20,000 nt of DNA from an uncultured virus (IMG/VR IMGVR_UViG_3300028835_001893) (IMGVR_UViG_3300028835_001893); one strand, 5' to 3'; positions 1 to 17,910 are shown, counted from the stretch's first letter. A program made the numbers and translations. The notes: generated from the sequence alone by a model not told the origin.

Positions 1-187
1 GAGTAAAACCCATACATTTTAACTCTGTAAAACGTTCAGATAATTCTTCTATTTCAATATCGTCAGGTAGATTAATCCCAGCTTGTTCTCGTATTGAAAG
101 ACATTTTTCCAAAGACAATTTAGATGGGATTAGTACTACATAATTAGTCGACGAACTATTGGTTATAAAATCTGTTTTAACTTTCAT
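1..187 (-). CDS. TNSSS-motif protein (copy 5; 3' end runs off the window)
   Basis: Not in the ORF track. ATG at 187-185 reads MKVKTDFITNSSSTNYVVLIPSKLSLEKCLSIREQAGINLPDDIEIEELSERFTELKMYGFY... with no stop before position 1. GAGGA SD-like sequence upstream; same N-terminal motif as the four preceding genes. Confidence 0.88.
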   Translation of the reverse strand, partial: MKVKTDFITNSSSTNYVVLIPSKLSLEKCLSIREQAGINLPDDIEIEELSERFTELKCMGFT

Positions 188-190
188 TCT

Positions 191-553
191 TTATCCTCGC
201 TCTATTACTTCAATCCATATTGACTTGAAACCAAAAGTTTCTGATAATTCTTTTTGTCGAATCTTAGAATCTATAATAATATGTCGCATATAGTGGGGAA
301 TATCCTCATAATTATTGTACATACTAGTAGATTCGGTTATTTTAAATATACCTTCTTCTTTTTCTTCAATCGTTTGTGGATTGTAAAATCTTAAAGTAGA
401 ACATTCTCCAGTGTATTTATACTCTTGTATATATTCTTCTAAATAACGGTTAAAACTATCTTGAAAACTATTTAAGTTCTTATCTGTTGATGCAAAATAC
501 AATATAAAACTTGCTGAACTACTATTAGTCACAAAATCTGTTTTAAATTTCAT
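191..553 (-). CDS. TNSSS-motif protein (copy 4), hypothetical
   Basis: 120 aa, begins MKFKTDFVTNSSSASFIL; tightly packed in operon. Confidence 0.88.
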   Translation of the reverse strand: MKFKTDFVTNSSSASFILYFASTDKNLNSFQDSFNRYLEEYIQEYKYTGECSTLRFYNPQTIEEKEEGIFKITESTSMYNNYEDIPHYMRHIIIDSKIRQKELSETFGFKSIWIEVIERG

Positions 554-564
554 TCTAATATTCC

Positions 565-1071
565 CTAATGGTGACTAATTTGGAGGTGTGGAAGTTTTCT
601 AAAAATTTCTCCATGTTCCATATCTGACCAAAAAGCTCCACCTTCATCAGAATAACTAAAGAAGTAAATTACTCGTCCAATATTTTTTTTTATAAATTGC
701 ACAGCGAGTTCTTTCGCTATTTTCCTTCGTTCACGGTCTTGTATTCTATAAGCTTCTTCGATAGGCATTCCACCTCTTTTAACAAGGTTGTCAGCATAAT
801 CCCATCCAAGATCACCTTCGAAATGCCCAGACTGAATCTCTTCGGTAAGTTTGTCAGTAACACCCCCTAATACTGGTTCAAAGTCAAACTCAAAATAACT
901 CTCTTTTAATATCAAAGGTTCCTGCGTTTGTATATCTTCCAAAACTGCTCTTGCTTGTTCAGTATACATTATGTATTTCTTAACATCTTCAAATGACTCC
1001 ACTACTTTATCCCAGGCAACTATAAAACTTGAAGAACTTGAGTTTGTTATAAAATCTGTTTTTGTCTTCAT
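565..1071 (-). CDS. TNSSS-motif protein (copy 3), hypothetical
   Basis: 168 aa, begins MKTKTDFITNSSSSSFIV; ends MEHGEIFRKLPHLQISHH. Confidence 0.88.
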   Translation of the reverse strand: MKTKTDFITNSSSSSFIVAWDKVVESFEDVKKYIMYTEQARAVLEDIQTQEPLILKESYFEFDFEPVLGGVTDKLTEEIQSGHFEGDLGWDYADNLVKRGGMPIEEAYRIQDRERRKIAKELAVQFIKKNIGRVIYFFSYSDEGGAFWSDMEHGEIFRKLPHLQISHH

Positions 1072-1077
1072 TACGAT

Positions 1078-1455
1078 CTAACACATCCGACTTCCAAAAA
1101 ATAACTTAAAGTCTCTTGCCCCAAAAGTCGTTTTAAGATGTCTCTTATTTTCGCTAATTATTCCTAGGTCTTCTTCACCACTTTCTTCACAATTAGAATC
1201 AAATACGAAGATTGGTACTCCAACTAGAATAGAATATTCATCGGGTGCACCCGCTTCTTCACTAACTAAGAAAAAATTACTACTGAGTTGTTTCTCTATT
1301 TCATTTATTTCTTCATCTGTTTCATTCTGAAAAACTAGTTTTAGTATATCGCTATATGACATCTCACATGCAACTTCGTCTGTTTTAACTTTAAATCCTA
1401 ATAATATAAAATTGCAAGTTGAACTATTTGTTACGAAACTTGTTTTTATCTTCAC
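1078..1455 (-). CDS. TNSSS-motif protein (copy 2), hypothetical
   Basis: 125 aa, GTG start overlapping the upstream TGA (GTGA); begins MKIKTSFVTNSSTCNFIL; very acidic. Confidence 0.85.
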   Translation of the reverse strand: MKIKTSFVTNSSTCNFILLGFKVKTDEVACEMSYSDILKLVFQNETDEEINEIEKQLSSNFFLVSEEAGAPDEYSILVGVPIFVFDSNCEESGEEDLGIISENKRHLKTTFGARDFKLFFGSRMC

Positions 1456-1979
1456 TTTTTTAAACTCCTTTTGATTTTTTCTTTTTCTTTTTCTTTTTCC
1501 TCTTTTATCGCTTCCAGTTCTTTTTCAAATTGTTTACTTTGTTCTCGTTTAAACTGAAGTCTTGTTTTTATTTTGAAATCTGTTAAGTCTAGAAACAAGT
1601 CTGATTCCCTATTTTCATCATAATAATCATCTTCACCAAGATAACGTTTTATCATCAATCCTTCATCTTCCCAGTTTTCATTTCTACATGTATCTACTCT
1701 AAGACTACGACCTCTAGCAACGTCAATCCAGTCACCATCATAAATAAAAGTTTCGTAATTACAAGTCCATGGAATAACAATATTTCCGTCAAAATCAGGA
1801 TTATCTTTTAACCATTTTTTAACTATCATCTCATGTGGATGTGGTGCATCTCTTGGACCCTCTTTCCAGTTCTCAAAAAATATATCTAACATCTTCCTTG
1901 CCGCGTCAATCGGTTTTCTATAGTCCACAATGTATGCAGTACTAGAACTGTTAGTTACAAAATCATGTTTTATCTTCAA
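1452..1979 (-). CDS. TNSSS-motif protein (copy 1), hypothetical
   Basis: 175 aa, TTG start with AAGGAGG SD; begins MKIKHDFVTNSSSTAYIV; charged C-terminal coiled-coil. Confidence 0.88.
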   Translation of the reverse strand: MKIKHDFVTNSSSTAYIVDYRKPIDAARKMLDIFFENWKEGPRDAPHPHEMIVKKWLKDNPDFDGNIVIPWTCNYETFIYDGDWIDVARGRSLRVDTCRNENWEDEGLMIKRYLGEDDYYDENRESDLFLDLTDFKIKTRLQFKREQSKQFEKELEAIKEEKEKEKEKIKRSLKK

Positions 1980-2013
1980 AAAACGTTCCTCCTTGAAAAA
2001 ACTCAGTTATAGT

Positions 2014-2178
2014 TTATATTCGGACGGCTCGAATACCCCTATTTTGACTTCTCCTATTCTTTTTACAAGAGGGGCAGTACACTCGTACCACCCCCCTACC
2101 TTTCCATTCATATTCCATTCTTGCCATATATGTTTTTCGACAACCAGGACAAATCGCCTTAACTTTAAATTTACTCAT
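2014..2178 (-). CDS. small zinc-ribbon protein
   Basis: CPGC...CPSC knuckles, basic. Start moved to ATG 2178 (MSKFK), which has a GGAG SD and overlaps the upstream gene end. Confidence 0.7.
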   Translation of the reverse strand: MSKFKVKAICPGCRKTYMARMEYEWKGRGVVRVYCPSCKKNRRSQNRGIRAVRI

Positions 2179-2353
2179 TTTTTTTACTCTCCAGTTCATT
2201 TGGTTTTCGAGTCATCATTAAACAAAACAAAACAAAAATAGCAACTATCAAATTGCTAATAGAGGAGAGAAACAAACTAAGAGGAACATTAATTATGAAT
2301 GTAAACCACAAAAACATTCGAATATCTCTTCTCATTTCTTCTTTTGCTTCCAT
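2171..2353 (-). CDS. small two-helix membrane protein
   Basis: Hydrophobic MFLWFTFIINVPLSLFLS...LIVAIFVLFCLMM; start at ATG 2353 behind AGGAGGT SD. Confidence 0.7.
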   Translation of the reverse strand: MEAKEEMRRDIRMFLWFTFIINVPLSLFLSSISNLIVAIFVLFCLMMTRKPNELESKKNE

Positions 2354-2363
2354 AATCCACCTC

Positions 2364-3461
2364 CTATAATTCATAAGGACATATATCTGGATGTTGTTTT
2401 AAAAGTTCTCTACATCTTATAAAAGGATCTGATCTATTCCATGCGTCCTCAATTGATTTATATTCAAGAGATACACTATGTTGTTTATAATTAGCAAAAG
2501 AACATGGAACTAATCTCATATCTGGAGTAATATAAACAGACATCCTTCCAGACTCACACGTATCAATTGACATTTCTTGCTGTGGTGAAAACTTAGCAAA
2601 CTTTTTTACTTTGTTCACCATACAACTATCAAGTCCCACCTTAAACTTACATTTCGGTTCTTTAATTAGTTTACTAAACTGACGTATTTGACTAATTTTT
2701 GGTACCCAGTATAGAAGCTCCTTACCTCTACCTTGTGGTTTAAACAAAAGGAAAATAATTGCATTAAGTTTTTCTAAATCACCTTTACCATTCCATATAT
2801 CTATACCCTTTAGTATCTTTACTGCAAGTGGGTGAGATACAGAAGAATATATAAAGTGAATATTGGTTTTCATTCCATTGTCTATAAATCTTCTTAACGA
2901 ATTATATGTAAAGTCTTGTCCATAGTCAGATACAGCTACAGCACCGCAAAGTTTTGATATCTCTATTTGTTTATCTGTTAAGTTAATTCCACTAGTAGTA
3001 TAGTTCGGAACTACATTATTACTCCTAGCATACTCAACAATCTTTTCAAAATCCTCATGAAGATTTGGATCTCCTCTTCCTCCTAATGCTATTTGATTTG
3101 TATGATGTTTACACTCATCTACAATTCTTTTAAAATCTTCAAATTTCATATTTGGTTCTTGATTATCTCCCTGATAGCAAAAATCACATCTGTTCTTACA
3201 ATGTCCCATTATCCCACAATCAATCATTGACGGCATATCAAGAGAAAATGGATCAGGGTGACCCTTAATACCTCGTAAGGCTTCAAACCCTGTCAGTGTG
3301 TTAAATAACAATTCATAGCGATCATTTTTAAAGCATTTATCAAAATAAGCACCTATTTCTATTCCAGTACGTTTGTCTTTCAATGTTCTAAATTTCATAT
3401 TTGACAGATCAGAATCGAACCTTCTACCCATCTTTATGAATTGTTCCATTTTCTTTACCAA
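2364..3461 (-). CDS. radical SAM protein with C-terminal SPASM/twitch domain
   Basis: CxxxCxxC (CKNRCDFC), ALGGRGDP (GGEP-equivalent), NYTTSG, and C-terminal CESGRMSVYITPDMRLVPC...CRE...ICP. Start uncertain (TTG 3461, ATG 3449, 3431 or 3398). Confidence 0.92.
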   Translation of the reverse strand: MVKKMEQFIKMGRRFDSDLSNMKFRTLKDKRTGIEIGAYFDKCFKNDRYELLFNTLTGFEALRGIKGHPDPFSLDMPSMIDCGIMGHCKNRCDFCYQGDNQEPNMKFEDFKRIVDECKHHTNQIALGGRGDPNLHEDFEKIVEYARSNNVVPNYTTSGINLTDKQIEISKLCGAVAVSDYGQDFTYNSLRRFIDNGMKTNIHFIYSSVSHPLAVKILKGIDIWNGKGDLEKLNAIIFLLFKPQGRGKELLYWVPKISQIRQFSKLIKEPKCKFKVGLDSCMVNKVKKFAKFSPQQEMSIDTCESGRMSVYITPDMRLVPCSFANYKQHSVSLEYKSIEDAWNRSDPFIRCRELLKQHPDICPYEL

Positions 3462-3972
3462 ACTTTGTATAAACTACACCATCGATCGTTCTTATTTGTC
3501 TAAATTTCCCCATTTTTAAAAGTAAAGGAGCATTTTTATGTAAGGACTTCTGATCTTCTGGCATTGAATTTTCCCATTCTTTTTCACTAATAACCTCGTC
3601 AGAAACCAAAATAATAAATTTGTTCTCCTTATCTGGGTCATAGTCATTTTGAACAATCAGTAGAGTCTTGTAGAATGTTTTTCGAAGGACTTGTCGCAAA
3701 CATCTTCCACGAAACCGATTATGATAGTCTCCCCAACAAAAACCATTGTCTTCTAATATTGATTCTATTTTATCGGCGTTCTCCCGGTTTTGTTCTACTA
3801 TTTCATTAAGTTCATCAAAATGTTCGATTAAGAGTTTTAATATAGGTCTCCATTTTTTACCTACAGCTTTTAAGACCTTGTTTTTATTTTCTTCGTCTTC
3901 TAAATTGAAGATGATTTCTCGCCAGTAGTTATTTTTTGGAACTATAACAAATGTATCTACTAAGTTTCCCAT
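3424..3972 (-). CDS. hypothetical protein
   Basis: 182 aa ORF overlapping both neighbours in operon fashion; no recognised motif. Confidence 0.75.
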   Translation of the reverse strand: MGNLVDTFVIVPKNNYWREIIFNLEDEENKNKVLKAVGKKWRPILKLLIEHFDELNEIVEQNRENADKIESILEDNGFCWGDYHNRFRGRCLRQVLRKTFYKTLLIVQNDYDPDKENKFIILVSDEVISEKEWENSMPEDQKSLHKNAPLLLKMGKFRQIRTIDGVVYTKFGKENGTIHKDG

Positions 3973-4268
3973 TTCTTGCCTTCTTCCTTTATTAAAATCT
4001 CCTGAAAACCTTCTGGATAATGAAATGCTCTTATCTCTTCCATTTGTTCATCCATACTCATGTTAAGATCGTATACTTCTATTATCTTAATTGCACTATG
4101 TTTAGGACTATATTTATCATAAACTTCTTTAAACTTTTCTAGTCCTTTAGTATAAACAGGAAAGTCGTACCAGTCAATTTGGTCGCATAGAACTATCATA
4201 TGGTCTTCTTTATTTTCGACTCCTGTTTCAAACCACGAAATTATATCTTGTTTTGTTGCTGCACTCAC
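3960..4268 (-). CDS. hypothetical phage protein
   Basis: 102 aa, GTG start with TAGGAGGT SD. Confidence 0.8.
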   Translation of the reverse strand: MSAATKQDIISWFETGVENKEDHMIVLCDQIDWYDFPVYTKGLEKFKEVYDKYSPKHSAIKIIEVYDLNMSMDEQMEEIRAFHYPEGFQEILIKEEGKKWET

Positions 4269-4279
4269 ACTTACCTCCT

Positions 4280-4331
4280 ATTTATCCTGTCCATCTGTAG
4301 TTGCATTTACTACAAGCTGGACAAGATAAAT
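4280..4331 (-). promoter_or_regulatory. long imperfect RNA stem-loop immediately 5' of an SD (processing, stability or regulatory element)
   Basis: Minus-strand RNA UUUAUCUUGUCCAGCUUGUAGU-AAAUGCA-ACUACAGAUGGACAGGAUAAA: about 20 bp with one G-U pair, one G.A mismatch and one bulge. Fills the intergenic gap; no U-tail. Confidence 0.65.
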
Positions 4332-4345
4332 GACGAAAAAGTTTA

Positions 4346-4585
4346 TTAAGATGTCTCAACATTCGCACTTTTTCTTGGTCTATTAGAAGTTTTTCTTCTT
4401 TTAATTATTGTAATAATATACTCAACAGTCACGACTAAAGGACCAATAAATAATAATATGAGACAAACCCAAAGGTCTACAGCAGTAACAGAGCCATAAA
4501 TCTTGTTATAGTATAACATCCGTTTAATACTTATAACAAACCCAGCTACAAACCATACTAATAATATAATATGTAAGACTGTCAA
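4346..4585 (-). CDS. small membrane protein
   Basis: 79 aa, two hydrophobic helices, basic tail; TTG start with AAGGAGGT SD. Confidence 0.75.
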   Translation of the reverse strand: MTVLHIILLVWFVAGFVISIKRMLYYNKIYGSVTAVDLWVCLILLFIGPLVVTVEYIITIIKRRKTSNRPRKSANVETS

Positions 4586-4588
4586 TTT

Positions 4589-5644
4589 TCACACCTCCTT
4601 GGTTAAATATGATTTTACTAATTTAATACATAGTTCATCTACCAATTGCTCATTTGGTGATTCTGGTAGAGGACTAATTTCCTTAAGTTCTCTAAGTTGA
4701 CTGGTAAGAACATCCGTAAGCGATATTAACTCATCATAAGTAACATTCCCATTTAAAATCCATCGTAAGAGACCTACGTCTGGTCGAGGAAAAGTAATAT
4801 GACCAGTTCCAACTATCTCTTCTCCTTCTGATAACAGACGATATAAATGGGCAGCATGTTTTGTATCATATCCAAACTTTTCTTCAAGTTTTGCTCTAGC
4901 TGGATGTCTGTTCTTTTTCCAGTTTTGATATGAATTCCATTCTCTCATAGCGTTCATATAAGCCTTTTCTCTCTCAAGAGCTTCAAGAAAATTGTCACTC
5001 ACTGGAACAAGAGTTTTGATTGCTTTATAATCTAATGCTTTCAAATTTTGCGTTAAAGCAATAAAAGCAACCGTTTCTTCCATCTTATCTAATTGTTCTC
5101 TAAGACCATGAAACTTTCCAATTTGTTGTAAGTATAATGATAATAACTTATTAAAAGCTCCAATCTGGTCTTTTGGTATTAATGAACGATTATCTGGAAG
5201 ACCATACTTCTCACGAGTTGGTTGTTCTTTGGGAGGATTTAGAAGCCAGTTTCTATGTCGTTTAATACGTTTTAGTTGTTCATGTGCATAACCTATAAAT
5301 GAGTCAGTACATAATCTAGAAACAATATGTTCTTCCATATGGATTATCGCAATCCATTCTTTTGTATGATGTTTCCAGAAAGATTCGGGAATAAATAGAT
5401 ACTCAATAATTGACGGGTTGTTAACTAGCAACATCTTCATAAAACTACATATATCATAAAGCGTGGTGCTTTTTTCTTTATCTTCATAGTCTCGTAAATA
5501 AATCTTATTTAAGAAACCATAAAAGTACTCCTCACTTGGTATAAAAACTCCTCCTATATCAACATCTGAAGTTTCTATATCAGTTCCATATAAATTGCTT
5601 CCGACTATTGTTTTAAATATCAACTTAAAATCGTTTGGTATCAT
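4589..5644 (-). CDS. Pol-beta superfamily nucleotidyltransferase, RlaP/PF10127-like
   Basis: GSNLYGTDIETSDVDIGGVF (GS...DxD), NNPSIIEYLF, FIGYA, GYDTKHAAHLYRLL. Start moved to ATG 5644 (GGGAGG SD). Confidence 0.88.
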   Translation of the reverse strand: MIPNDFKLIFKTIVGSNLYGTDIETSDVDIGGVFIPSEEYFYGFLNKIYLRDYEDKEKSTTLYDICSFMKMLLVNNPSIIEYLFIPESFWKHHTKEWIAIIHMEEHIVSRLCTDSFIGYAHEQLKRIKRHRNWLLNPPKEQPTREKYGLPDNRSLIPKDQIGAFNKLLSLYLQQIGKFHGLREQLDKMEETVAFIALTQNLKALDYKAIKTLVPVSDNFLEALEREKAYMNAMREWNSYQNWKKNRHPARAKLEEKFGYDTKHAAHLYRLLSEGEEIVGTGHITFPRPDVGLLRWILNGNVTYDELISLTDVLTSQLRELKEISPLPESPNEQLVDELCIKLVKSYLTKEV

Positions 5645-6002
5645 TACTATCCTCCCGTAATTTGTTAAGTAATTTCTTCTTTGCTTCACTTACCAATTCT
5701 GAAACAATGTCAGAGCTAGTTGTTAGGAATTTAAAAGTTAATCCATCTAACACTAAAGAAGTATATAGTTTCCTCTCAAAATCCCACTGATTGAGACCTT
5801 CCTTTTTACAAAATTCTCCTATAGTTTTTGTTAATATGTGAGGGATTTCTAAAGAAACTGGAGTTTCTTCTTTTTCACCAAACCATAGACTTGGCCCTAC
5901 ATCAACGATCGCCTTTGCTACGGCATATATCATACTTCTTTCGACTTCAGAATATCCAAGAGGATTTCTCAGTTTTTCAAGTATCTCTTCTAGTTGGTTC
6001 AT
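5625..6002 (-). CDS. hypothetical protein, paralog of 5999-6343
   Basis: Shares NPLGYSE, GPxxWxGEKExTPVSLEIPH and QWDFExKLY with its neighbour; GAGGAG SD. Confidence 0.82.
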   Translation of the reverse strand: MNQLEEILEKLRNPLGYSEVERSMIYAVAKAIVDVGPSLWFGEKEETPVSLEIPHILTKTIGEFCKKEGLNQWDFERKLYTSLVLDGLTFKFLTTSSDIVSELVSEAKKKLLNKLREDSNDTKRF

Positions 6003-6343
6003 AATTTATACTCCTCTACTTTTTCATTTGCTTCTTTATTTAGTAAATCTCGCAGAACCTTAGATTTCCCTAACAAGAAAATAAATGTTAATCCTTCTAG
6101 TATTAAATGAGTATACAACTTAGTTTCGAAATCCCACTGGACAAGTTTCTTTTCTCTACACATTATGTTAATTTCTTCTATTATCTCATGAGGAATCTCT
6201 AAACTAACTGGAGTCTTTTCTTTTTCACCAGTCCATACTTCTGGACCTGACATTAACATCCTTCCTAACATTTCAAATATTATGTCTTTAACCTCTTCAG
6301 AATATCCAAGTGGATTTTTGTATCTTTCAATTATATCTTCCAT
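5999..6343 (-). CDS. hypothetical protein, paralog of 5625-6002
   Basis: Same shared motifs; GAGGAG SD; ATGA overlap with the next gene. Confidence 0.82.
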   Translation of the reverse strand: MEDIIERYKNPLGYSEEVKDIIFEMLGRMLMSGPEVWTGEKEKTPVSLEIPHEIIEEINIMCREKKLVQWDFETKLYTHLILEGLTFIFLLGKSKVLRDLLNKEANEKVEEYKL

Positions 6344-7670
6344 TATTATACTCCTCTATTAATTTAGTTAACTTCTCTTTTGTATTTAGTTCGGGTTCGT
6401 CAGTAACTTTATCTAAAAGAAAACTCAGAATCTTTCCAATTATTGGACTAGGACTAAAGCCAGTTATTTCTATTATATCATTCCCCTTCAAAACTAAATC
6501 TTTAAATCTATTTGGTGGTTTCTCGCTTATTACTTCTTCTATTGAACCCACCAAAGTCCTTGCTTCTTGTATACTATATGGGTGTCGTTTTAAGTTTCCT
6601 TTTTTGTCTGCTAATATCATACGAAGTAGGTCTTTGTATTCTATATTAGACTCATTTAATTCTCGTAGAACTCGTCTAATAGCCTTCTTATGGTTAGATC
6701 CAATATCTCGCATATGTAGATATATTAGTTTAGAAATGTAGTTTACTTCTATATTTGAGAACTTCAAAGCACCTAATTCGTCTTTCACTAAATTGGACCC
6801 TGCTTCAACATGTCCCATAAATGTTAAGTCATTTGTTTTCGGATTTATTTTACATGCAACTGGCTTTCCTATATCATGTAGATAAGTTGCTAGTTTTAAA
6901 AGTGGATAACGAACTGAAATACAATCACCACATATCATACTATGTTCAAATATATCTTCTAAATGATGTGGTCCATGTGGGTGGTCAATACAGTCTTCTA
7001 AAGAAGGAAAAATGTATTGTAAAGCTCGAATCTGATGTAGAGTTCTAAAAAAATTAGAAGCTTTTCTTATTTGCATTGTTTTTAGAACTTCTAATCGGAC
7101 TCGTTCTGGCGAAACAAAAGTCTCTATATATTCAGAATGACTAATTAAAGCATCCCATGAGTCCTTTTCGATAATTCCATCTAACTTCGTAACAAACCTA
7201 CATGCCCTTATCATCCGGTTTGGATCTTCAAATATTCTTTCACCTGGTTCTCCAACGAATCTTATTATCTTATGTTCTAAATCAAAAAGTCCATTATGTA
7301 GATCAATTACTTCTTTTTTGTTAACATCATAAGCCATTGCGTTAATAGTAAAGTCTCGACGAGATAAATCTTCTTCGAGAGTCACTGGGAAAGTAACTTC
7401 TACATCTTTGTTATTCCAACCATGATATCGGTCGCGTCTATATGTAGCAACTTCAGTTCCATTAACTATCACAACTCCAAACTTTTTTCCAAGAGGTACT
7501 ACAGTTTCATTTTTAAAGATCTCCTCAACCTCATCGGGAAGAGCAGATGTAACTATATCAATATCATGTGGGTTTTTATTACCTAGAATAAAATCTCTAA
7601 CTGCTCCACCAACTATGTAAGCTTCATATCCATAAGTTTGTAGTCTTTCAATTATCGGGTGTGATCTCAA
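6327..7670 (-). CDS. cca: CCA tRNA nucleotidyltransferase (class II) with HD domain
   Basis: YIVGGAVRD..DIDIVT, EVATYR, EEDLSRRDFTINAMAY, EDPNRMIRACRF (EDxxR), PERVRLE, LHDIGKP (HD), C-terminal LKGNDI...IGKIL; TTG start with GAGGAG SD. Confidence 0.93.
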   Translation of the reverse strand: MRSHPIIERLQTYGYEAYIVGGAVRDFILGNKNPHDIDIVTSALPDEVEEIFKNETVVPLGKKFGVVIVNGTEVATYRRDRYHGWNNKDVEVTFPVTLEEDLSRRDFTINAMAYDVNKKEVIDLHNGLFDLEHKIIRFVGEPGERIFEDPNRMIRACRFVTKLDGIIEKDSWDALISHSEYIETFVSPERVRLEVLKTMQIRKASNFFRTLHQIRALQYIFPSLEDCIDHPHGPHHLEDIFEHSMICGDCISVRYPLLKLATYLHDIGKPVACKINPKTNDLTFMGHVEAGSNLVKDELGALKFSNIEVNYISKLIYLHMRDIGSNHKKAIRRVLRELNESNIEYKDLLRMILADKKGNLKRHPYSIQEARTLVGSIEEVISEKPPNRFKDLVLKGNDIIEITGFSPSPIIGKILSFLLDKVTDEPELNTKEKLTKLIEEYNNGRYN

Positions 7671-16798: not shown

Positions 16799-17910
16799 TG
16801 GAAGAATTACTTTCAAAAGCTAAAATTAACAAATCCATATTAAAACGTGCTCTAACTAAGATAGTCGGTACGAACTTATCTCGACTTTCCGAACCATGTT
16901 TCTATCCATCTATAAGGAAGCATTATCATGAATTACTTCGAATCTGTGGTTTAACAGAACGAGATGTTAAAGATTTTACAAAAAGGCGTTGGGGAAAAAG
17001 GAAAGAATCTAGATTTAAAATTCATATGGATCCAAAATCGAACTTCTACGTTTTTCTTATGCAGTACTTTCTTTTAGAAAGAGATCAGTCATCTTTTCAG
17101 ACTTCAATGGTATTCTTCATAATACGATACTATACAAATTTAATGTTTAAACAGATTGAGTTTTGTAATCCTGCTTTGTTCAAATATGCTTTAGAACATT
17201 TAACCAGAACTCATCTATTTTCTAGAGAAAAGACAATACCAAATGCACTATATTATCTTTCAAAAGAAATGGTTAGGAAATATCAGAGTGATTTAAAAAG
17301 TAATGATTTAGATGGAATATCTAAGTTCATGCAAGAAAGTAGAACAAGAGTTAGTCAGAGTATAAAAAGTTTTGCCGAGACATATTACAAAGCAAGCAAA
17401 GAAGGGACTGGAATAACAACTCTACCAGAACCAGCAGAAGCTGAAGAGGATACATATCAATATCAAGTAGTTGAAAAAAGTACTAGATCAGTTGATGAAG
17501 TTACAAGAAAGATTACAATCTATAAATTTATAGACAAAAAGGCCAAAGAAGAAGCAAGGAAACTAACTAGAGTTGCTTCTGAACTTGCTGAACTAATTCC
17601 TTCAGGATTGACTAACACAAAATACTCAGATGACATTCGAATTACTTTGCAATTATTTGTAAAAGACTTAAAGAATGTAAATGTAATATGTGGAAAAGCA
17701 TATTATGAATATGTCAGACGATTAATGGCATTAAAAAGAACTAAGTCAACATTATATTTTAAACAACGAATCAACATTCTATTACTAAAAGTTCTGGATG
17801 ATATTAAATTTAAGAAAAAGTACGAATCATTAACAAGTCAAACAAAATCACTAGTGAATTTGTTCCTCGCTTACTATATTACAATGGTGTTAAGAAATAC
17901 AATCTGTTAG
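16798..17910 (+). CDS. hypothetical basic alpha-helical protein
   Basis: 370 aa, TAATG-coupled to the baseplate gene; no recognised motif. Confidence 0.78.
   Translation: MEELLSKAKINKSILKRALTKIVGTNLSRLSEPCFYPSIRKHYHELLRICGLTERDVKDFTKRRWGKRKESRFKIHMDPKSNFYVFLMQYFLLERDQSSFQTSMVFFIIRYYTNLMFKQIEFCNPALFKYALEHLTRTHLFSREKTIPNALYYLSKEMVRKYQSDLKSNDLDGISKFMQESRTRVSQSIKSFAETYYKASKEGTGITTLPEPAEAEEDTYQYQVVEKSTRSVDEVTRKITIYKFIDKKAKEEARKLTRVASELAELIPSGLTNTKYSDDIRITLQLFVKDLKNVNVICGKAYYEYVRRLMALKRTKSTLYFKQRINILLLKVLDDIKFKKKYESLTSQTKSLVNLFLAYYITMVLRNTIC

Follow-up and report, generated by a model that had tools for sequence, protein, structure and literature searches.

The 20,000-nucleotide stretch of DNA analysed here (below, the window) derives from an uncultured virus catalogued in IMG/VR (IMGVR_UViG_3300028835_001893), and its first 3,461 bases carry on the minus strand a gene for a radical S-adenosylmethionine (rSAM) enzyme and, downstream of it, an array of small genes whose products share an N-terminal sequence that we call the tag. 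The enzyme (positions 2364 to 3461; 365 amino acids from a TTG start) belongs to a phage group that we term clade A and is matched by Pfam Radical_SAM and by phrog_7293. The five tightly packed open reading frames (ORFs) of the array encode proteins of 118 to 175 amino acids, all of which start MK.K..F[VI]TNSS. Counting away from the enzyme, they are tag protein 1 (1452 to 1979, 175 residues from a TTG start, subfamily 7), tag protein 2 (1078 to 1455, 125 residues from a GTG start, with TNSST as its motif, subfamily 10), tag protein 3 (565 to 1071, 168 residues, subfamily 2), tag protein 4 (191 to 553, 120 residues, subfamily 6) and tag protein 5 (1 to 187, ORF 2 to 187, subfamily 1), the last of the array, of which the window's edge leaves the N-terminal 62 codons. 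Judged from these coordinates, the spacing of neighbouring genes varies between an overlap of 4 bases and a gap of 11. The layout agrees with an initial annotation of the window, which had described five consecutive genes with these N-termini (TNSS falls at residues 9–12 in all five) and an rSAM gene just upstream on the same strand, set apart by two tiny genes. The latter correspond to a hydrophobic 67-residue protein (2171 to 2374, from the ORF list) and a zinc-ribbon-like 61-residue protein with two CxxC pairs (2014 to 2199, with weak zinc-ribbon matches below the Pfam cut-off), both on the minus strand. Homologues of the first are limited to the closest relatives of the locus (L005–L007, L041 and L042), placing it outside the conserved core, and the second is likewise conserved in the closest relatives only.

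The same annotation had allowed that the array might continue beyond the window. A second virus record, G001 (35 kb; 11% complete by CheckV estimate), is identical to the window at 17,723 of 17,724 bases of their overlap and contains the whole of tag protein 5, with a length of 118 residues (L002:17386-17742), after which a convergent tail-sheath gene ends the array. The array therefore has exactly five members. Tag protein 3 carries a second conserved block (Y.F.Y.DEDG...EMEHG...IS.H), has orthologues in cultured phages (Matisse gp118 and RB43ORF121c), and belongs to the subfamily that is the commonest partner directly adjoining clade-A enzymes. It matches phrog_7397, a phage family without an assigned function, at E 9e-13; the 120-residue and 175-residue tag proteins match the same family weakly (E 0.02), by way of the tag. 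Window positions 1–6000 had no match in the phage collection at the DNA level, and a scan for promoters and terminators did no better than shuffled sequence (46 found, 44.2 expected).

An alignment query of IMG/VR for the tag returned 34 loci, which together with the window hold 118 tag ORFs (103 of them distinct), from 1 to 7 per locus. These loci were selected by the tag pattern; the extra copies within each locus were unselected and are equally conserved. From residue 1, the consensus of the 103 distinct ORFs reads M-K-[IVL]-K-x-D-F-[VI]-T-N-S-S-S-[TSA]-[SAC]-[FY]-[IV]-[VIL], with invariant positions at F7, [TS]9, N10, S11–S13 and [FY]16 and an invariant F-[VI]-[TS] triplet; a variant form, MKIR.GFVSNSSSSSF, also exists. 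Beyond residue 20 the tag proteins fall into 21 BLAST clusters. When the nine subfamilies that have three or more members were compared as profiles with hhalign, from residue 21 onwards, the best pair (subfamilies 3 and 9) reached 53% and the other 35 of 36 pairs remained below 6%, so that the earlier impression of no similarity past about residue 20 holds at the level of profiles as well.

A profile search with the motif had been proposed as a way to follow up the locus. Run with a 36-position profile (alignment A2) against 1.84 billion representatives, it matched 8,167 proteins, each standing for a protein cluster, at E≤0.001 and 22 at E≤1e-10, and in nearly all of the 150 best the match begins at residue 1. 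A Pfam scan of 122 of those 150 representatives (the shortest were omitted) gave three matches above cut-off, to three unrelated families; apart from these three domains and phrog_7397, no name for the tag proteins was found in Pfam, NCBIfam, PHROGs or PADLOC. A tblastn search of cultured phages with the 36-residue tag returned no match, for which the low-complexity filter and the shortness of the query are probably to blame. Three metagenomic proteins (P0010, P0011 and P0012; 211–288 residues) carry the tag twice, at residue 1 and again internally, and look like fusions of two neighbouring tag genes.

We also compared codon usage among the five tags of the window. At 53 of 113 same-residue codon pairs the codons differ, including serine switches between AGY and TCN. 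This synonymous diversity rules out the idea that the tag is a DNA repeat or a gene-conversion tract, and on the evidence of the sequences the tag is selected at the protein level. It is a real, modular and widespread N-terminal module that heads dozens of otherwise unrelated small domains.

The tag and rSAM genes occur together in phages and in bacteria, and their adjacency recurs in three gene orders. Thirty of the 35 tag-selected sources (the 34 IMG/VR loci and the window) contain an rSAM gene. In 17 it belongs to clade A and lies upstream of the array, and in 13 it belongs to a second group, clade B, which lies directly downstream of a tag gene in 12 of the 13. An enzyme is missing from five sources, namely four truncated loci and one lone tag gene, and the parent contig of one of them carries a clade-A gene elsewhere. 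Three large contigs of the clade-B type (102–269 kb) each have a clade-A gene with adjoining tag genes as well, and 5–10 tag genes in all. Starting instead from the enzyme, a single-sequence query of IMG/VR found its own contig only, and an alignment query found 207 relatives. Eighty enzyme-selected loci were extracted, 77 of which have at least 700 nt of downstream DNA; in 56 of these 77 a tag gene lies within 1.5 kb downstream on the same strand, most often a member of the 165–180-residue subfamily of the window's 168-residue protein.

Cultured phages show the same association. Among 50,697 records, a relative of the enzyme (29% identity over 85–90% of its length) is present in 166 and the subfamily-2 tag protein in 175, with near-identical tallies by organism among the T4-like phages. 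Enzyme and tag-protein records, respectively, number 107 and 115 for Klebsiella, 20 and 20 for Enterobacter, 12 and 14 for Cronobacter, 11 and 11 for Citrobacter, 9 and 9 for Escherichia, 2 and 2 each for Raoultella and Pseudotevenvirus, 1 and 1 each for Buttiauxella and for the label 'Klebseilla', and 1 and 0 for Vibrio; the overlap is judged from these tallies, made by the first word of the organism name, and from the rows listed. Some of the records with the tag protein only are partial genomes (88–100 kb). In both Klebsiella phage Matisse and E. coli phage RB43, the enzyme gene lies about 20 kb from the genes of two tag proteins (RB43ORF121c and RB43ORF116c in the latter); a conserved protein of about 738 residues lies between the two tag genes (Matisse gp116, L039:3114-5330; RB43ORF119c, L171:3256-5475). 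Phage T4 has neither tag nor enzyme, as judged by a profile search for the former and a search for the latter. In the clade-B loci, a protein of about 80 residues with a type IV pilin-like N-terminus (L016:7410-7655 and its counterparts) lies between the tag array and SbcD/SbcC-like genes, which are part of the phage replication module.

A scan of bacterial genomes and metagenome-assembled genomes (MAGs), one genome per species, identified 51 further tag loci, some of them on multi-megabase contigs and one in an isolate, Tissierella praeacuta DSM 18095. A few contigs labelled archaeal are among the 51; they show phage gene order and are probably mis-binned virus. An rSAM gene is present at 43 of the 51 loci, of which 41 match the window enzyme (full-length copies at E 1e-40 to 1e-58) and two belong to clade B. 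At about 41 loci the enzyme, of a SPASM type that we call clade C, directly follows a single tag protein of about 135 residues, and the pair forms the end of a four-gene operon that encodes a STAND NTPase (750–1070 residues), a 140-residue protein, the tag protein and the rSAM enzyme. All four STAND proteins that were scanned match the PADLOC model for Avs2, three at E 4.9e-22 to 4e-26 and the fourth at 3.7e-16, and two of the four have a sub-threshold trypsin-like N-terminal domain. A gene of the metallo-beta-lactamase (MBL) fold is sometimes found 5' of the operon, and in annotated examples its neighbours include type I restriction and GmrSD genes, as in defence islands. The conserved protein of about 140 residues between the Avs2-like NTPase and the tag protein (41 loci; L122–L170, at about 5560–6010 in most) matches no family. 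In an even sample of 401 Bacteroidota genomes, centred on a genome picked for carrying the pair, the tag occurs in two genomes, that one included, and the clade-C enzyme in the same two, adjacent to the tag gene, with none elsewhere. The co-occurrence of motif and enzyme, a check proposed together with the profile search, is thus borne out from three sides (30 of 35 phage sources, 56 of 77 enzyme-selected loci and 43 of 51 bacterial loci), and tag proteins are not commonly found without such an rSAM gene.

The window enzyme exceeds the Pfam cut-off for the rSAM superfamily (PF04055; 37.6 bits against 29.5), matches phrog_7293 at E 1.6e-27, and has 769 homologues at E≤1e-5, about 55% identical. 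Its cluster-binding cysteines C88, C92 and C95 (CxxxCxxC) are invariant in 48 sequences. Four further cysteines (C280, C302, C320 and C361) are invariant in clade A, and the score for Pfam SPASM (PF13186) is 16.9 bits, under the cut-off of 21.5, with fewer than the seven cysteines that define a SPASM domain. Clade A is therefore twitch-like with one auxiliary cluster, and of the 'SPASM/twitch tail' proposed in the initial annotation the twitch part stands and a full SPASM domain does not. Clade C by contrast does qualify as SPASM (TIGR04085, 32 bits against 27), with eight further conserved cysteines. An N-terminal element at about residues 49–64 of clade A (Y..hFN..TG) is common to clades A and C and to the Matisse-type enzyme, and is absent from clade B, which is about 350 residues long and lacks the N-terminal extension. 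We refer to it as the docking element, in view of the modelling described below.

The closest solved structures to clade C, matched over nearly the full length at E 9.8e-17, are 5v1q, 5v1s and 5v1t, which we take to be SuiB, the maturase that forms the Lys-Trp cross-link of streptide. Its next profile matches are GDGT/MAS synthase (7tol) and PqqE, at E about 1e-7, and the match to the anaerobic sulfatase-maturating enzyme (anSME; 4k36 and 4k37) is weak (E 2e-5). Clade A has SkfB as its closest solved relative (E 5.2e-5). Because their best solved relatives are peptide maturases, the enzymes group with peptide and protein maturases and not with known small-molecule enzymes; grouping with the latter would have spoken against a role in protein modification. 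None of the enzymes reaches an NCBIfam equivalog, and no anSME model is among the NCBIfam matches; the window enzyme has no Pfam match to PqqD or to a RiPP (ribosomally made, post-translationally modified peptide) recognition element (RRE). Models for pVips are matched weakly, by way of the common rSAM core. We also considered clade B as a deazaguanine enzyme of the QueE type, given a nearby QueD-like gene, and rejected it: at E 2.5e-6, its match to QueE is weak and falls far short of the cut-off. At one locus (L012:3950-5879) the clade-A gene is split into parts of 177 and 223 residues by an inserted ORF for a 239-residue HNH endonuclease; the accessible part of a report on a Slopekvirus (PMC9960720) describes the same enzyme split beside homing endonucleases.

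AlphaFold2 (AF2) models were generated for two tag proteins, the 168-residue protein (21-sequence alignment; mean predicted local distance difference test score, pLDDT, of 86) and the 118-residue protein (15-sequence alignment; mean pLDDT 76, more precisely 75.7). Residues 1–10, the most invariant part of the tag, are modelled with pLDDT below 50 in both. Residues 13–18 or 13–20 form the first strand, a core strand of the predicted fold in both models, which pairs with an internal strand (residues 134–141 in the 168-residue protein and 85–91 in the 118-residue protein) that is followed by an acidic, glycine-containing loop. A similar block of strand plus acidic/Gly loop is visible in many other subfamilies and in the bacterial proteins, and the tag families may share a minimal architecture below the reach of profile detection. 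Foldseek found no PDB match to the 168-residue model at E≤0.001, and a wide fold search with VIA gave a best Z of 3.6 and no fold assignment.

The initial annotation had suggested co-folding the motif peptide with the rSAM enzyme. We did so with the window enzyme (48-sequence alignment), together with SAM and two 4Fe-4S clusters, and residues 1–36 of tag protein 1 (99-sequence alignment). The co-fold scored 0.93 in three of three runs, against 0.00, 0.00 and 0.02 for the controls; on calibration, 116 of 157 solved complexes and 2 of 215 mismatched pairs came up to the mark applied to such scores. The runs share at least 86% of their contacts, the partner chain has a pLDDT of at least 61, and all of tag residues 1–20 are within the predicted interface. 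Tag residues 2–7 are modelled as pairing with enzyme residues 57–64, within the N-terminal docking element, and F7 to T9 as contacting N153, Y154, T155, G173 and A174, with further contacts along the barrel and the region of the auxiliary cluster (C280, D300, C302, E303 and C320). Of the 63 enzyme residues in the predicted interface, 35 show conservation of 90% or more, where 18.1 would be expected (p=7.5e-7). The modelling supports binding of the tag by the enzyme.

Taken together, gene adjacency, co-occurrence, the disordered tag and the predicted docking favour the proposal, made from the window alone in the initial annotation, that the shared motif serves the neighbouring enzyme as a tag for recognition or modification. 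We consider it probable that the locus is a protein-tag maturation system, in which a RiPP-like maturase modifies a portable N-terminal tag carried by many full-size proteins. The further suggestion that one maturase serves a diversified set of such proteins agrees with the sizes found (118–175 residues, five per array); the modification itself is the part that we infer.

Such a system might work as follows. The enzyme encoded at 2364–3461 would recognise the sequence M-K-[IVL]-K-x-D-F-[VI]-T-N-S-S-S-x-x-[FY]-[IV]-[IV] on the five downstream proteins. A nascent or unfolded N-terminus would be bound by strand addition, tag residues 2–7 lining up on enzyme residues 57–64, so as to place F7 to approximately S13 inside the barrel, with the SAM cluster on one side and the auxiliary-cluster domain on the other. 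The 5'-deoxyadenosyl radical would then strip one of the tag residues of a hydrogen, and the tag would receive a covalent modification. Since tag residues 13–18 later form the first strand of the predicted fold, modification would have to occur before or during folding. One candidate chemistry is a C-C or ether cross-link from the beta-carbon of a Ser, Thr or Asn to the aromatic ring of F7 or of F/Y16. Cross-links from an aliphatic beta-carbon to an aromatic ring are known from streptide and from three-residue cyclophanes, and the F-[VI]-[TS] triplet, the part of the tag predicted to lie deepest in the barrel, would fit this candidate. A second is an anSME-like oxidation of serine to formylglycine, which we regard as just one option because the sulfatase motif is absent from the tag.

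An rSAM maturase with a recognition sequence in its substrate is a known kind of system; what would be new here is that its targets are many full-size proteins. Like the SPASM maturases of RiPP pathways, the enzymes combine an rSAM core with an auxiliary-cluster domain, and the recognition stretch of the substrate is predicted to bind as an added strand with the residues that follow it entering the barrel. They differ in that the putative substrates are folded proteins of 83–236 residues rather than short peptides, that recognition stretch and core together take up about 18 residues, that no PqqD or RRE domain was matched (an N-terminal docking strand is predicted), that the pair has no conserved protease or exporter gene next to it, and that the phage enzyme keeps just four auxiliary cysteines. 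The anSMEs are alike in another respect, as rSAM/SPASM enzymes that act on a full-size protein ahead of its folding, at a Ser or Cys close to the N-terminus, and the tag offers three invariant serines. The sulfatase signature, C/S-x-P/A-x-R, is however absent from the tag consensus, no NCBIfam or Pfam sulfatase or anSME equivalog was matched, and the tag proteins are not sulfatases.

The closest described relatives of the pair, by a likeness judged by eye, are Avap1 and Avap2 of the KpAvs2 operon, an rSAM protein and a small protein with an HHpred match to DUF6375, respectively (Bechon et al. 2024, PMC11564622). In the literature searched, that is the one paper on these proteins. Its accessible sections state that Avap2 binds the sensor and is required for defence, that Avap1 is needed against phage T2 and not against SECphi18, and that the functions of both are unclear. 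As in our loci, a small protein of about 135 residues is encoded beside an rSAM enzyme of undescribed chemistry, and the bacterial relatives of the window pair share with Avap1 and Avap2 an operon that contains an Avs2-type STAND NTPase and lies in defence islands. By eye, Avap1 has an N-terminal F-x-x-x-T-G element and the sequence T-N-x-C-x-x-x-C-x-x-C, as do clades A and C, and Avap2 starts with MKIW-NGYGSEHS followed by hydrophobic residues, which gives it a tag-like shape without the TNSSS tag. There are further differences. The hidden Markov model of PF19902 (DUF6375), a less sensitive method than HHpred, matched nothing in five tag-bearing bacterial genomes or five phage records; it also found nothing in 401 Bacillota genomes, a result of little weight since control genomes were silent too. 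The bacterial operon has an additional 140-residue gene, which adjoins the sensor just where Avap2 is placed in the published KpAvs2 operon, and the N-terminus of its sensor is trypsin-like in place of an Mrr nuclease. Phages have whole arrays of the small protein, and no Avs2 accompanies the pair there (none in five records), from which we conclude that the phage arrays act without the sensor. Elsewhere in the literature searched, which did not cover bioRxiv supplements, we found neither the tag family nor its pairing with an rSAM enzyme described (PMC5219037 is silent), and the accessible part of a preprint on Avs2-trypsin-MBL systems makes no mention of an rSAM gene.

Both the predicted docking and the co-occurrence would fit any kind of binding, and the tag proteins might accordingly be interchangeable adaptors or regulators, which plug the active site or redirect the enzyme to a different substrate, for example a nucleotide, nucleic acid or host protein. 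The presence of 5–10 different tag proteins per enzyme in phage genomes would suit such a role, as would the requirement for sensor-bound Avap2 even where the rSAM protein is dispensable, reported in the accessible sections of PMC11564622. The same sections report no pVip-type nucleotide products for Avap1. Moreover, the most conserved residues of the tag are predicted to sit inside the barrel, against invariant active-site residues and where the substrates of maturases sit, and the nearest solved relatives modify peptides; on balance we think adaptors rather unlikely. It is improbable, too, that the tag is the first active-site motif of a single divergent family of enzymes or binding proteins, to which the rSAM enzyme would be linked metabolically, for instance through ligand supply. 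In such a family the TNSSS loop would be motif I and the strand with its acidic loop motif II, as suggested by the pairing of the second half of the tag (strand 1) with an internal strand before an acidic loop in both AF2 models, by the recurrence of this block in many subfamilies and in bacterial proteins, and by the 53% hhalign result for subfamilies 3 and 9. Residues 1–10, though, are both the most invariant and disordered in the two models, 35 of 36 profile comparisons fall below 6%, three representatives have unrelated Pfam domains behind the tag, the fold searches were empty (nothing at E≤0.001 with Foldseek, and a best Z of 3.6 with VIA), and a single active-site family would leave the confident docking of residues 1–20 unexplained.

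A sorting or packaging signal was also considered. T4-type phages have polymorphic internal-protein loci whose products share a capsid-targeting sequence, and these loci resemble the arrays described here as tandem sets of diverse small proteins of large myoviruses that share a short, invariant N-terminal sequence; the window array, moreover, lies beside tail genes. The sequence itself is a different one, T4 has neither the tag nor the enzyme, and the tag is found here as a single gene in a bacterial operon with an rSAM enzyme and a STAND NTPase, where capsid targeting would make no sense. With the tag adjacent to rSAM genes in three gene orders, we regard a packaging signal with an incidental syntenic link to the enzyme as highly improbable.

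Several observations weigh against maturation of the tag by the enzyme, the explanation that we nevertheless favour. The co-fold score measures the confidence of a model: structures of peptide-bound rSAM maturases have been solved, and likeness to them may contribute, while the custom alignments and riding ligands that were used here differ from the conditions of the calibration. Docking was modelled for clade A, and clade B has no N-terminal docking element. The docked pose requires an unfolded substrate, since residues 13–18 are a core strand in both AF2 models, and the shared hydrophobic strand and acidic/Gly loop could point to a common minimal fold or active site. The tag is near-identical in phages and bacteria though the enzymes match one another at E 1e-40 to 1e-58, and this conservation of the tag beyond that of the enzymes hints at a constraint other than enzyme recognition. 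As to gene content, no tag gene lies within 5 kb in 21 of the 77 enzyme-selected loci, and a phage fragment of 86 kb carries a lone tag gene in the absence of any clade-A enzyme. Finally, in the accessible sections of PMC11564622, the KpAvs2 rSAM protein Avap1 is dispensable against one phage while the small Avap2 is needed.

Because the same pair is present in an Avs2-like operon in bacterial defence islands, the matured proteins most likely act in the conflict between phage and host. Counter-defence by mimicry of a host tag protein would be an attractive role for the phage arrays. A fuller account, to which we give a small chance, is that dedicated rSAM enzymes install one covalent modification on thousands of unrelated small proteins by way of the tag, that bacteria use one matured tag protein in an NLR-like (Avs2) immune operon, that large phages captured the enzyme and multiply tagged decoys or inhibitors against such sensors, and that this also explains Avap1 and Avap2; the phage arrays would then serve for counter-defence, as a repertoire armed post-translationally. 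Should the tag be modified at all, RiPP chemistry would extend to whole proteins by means of one 18-residue handle, found across more than 8,000 unnamed protein clusters. The rSAM accessory gene of Avs2 immune operons would gain a concrete and testable role, and a short tag that steers a radical enzyme to arbitrary proteins would have potential use in protein engineering. The system is accessible in a laboratory phage, E. coli phage RB43, which encodes both the enzyme and a pair of tag proteins.

The rest of the window holds phage genes, including those for baseplate proteins and for two nucleotidyltransferases. The latter, an RlaP-type nucleotidyltransferase (Pfam RlaP, E 3.6e-14; phrog_388) and a tRNA nucleotidyltransferase (phrog_2244, E 4e-70), are encoded by a pair of genes at 4589–5689 and 6327–7670 on the minus strand, just upstream of the rSAM block, and may form an RNA-repair module. 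Also on the minus strand are two adjoining paralogues of 125 and 114 residues (5625–6002 and 5999–6343), which share identical stretches such as NPLGYSE and TPVSLEIPH and have no PHROG match. Outside the window, record G001 encodes a 499-residue protein (L002:7813-9312) in which a long run of Ser/Thr dipeptides is followed by RCC1-like repeats of about 50 residues.

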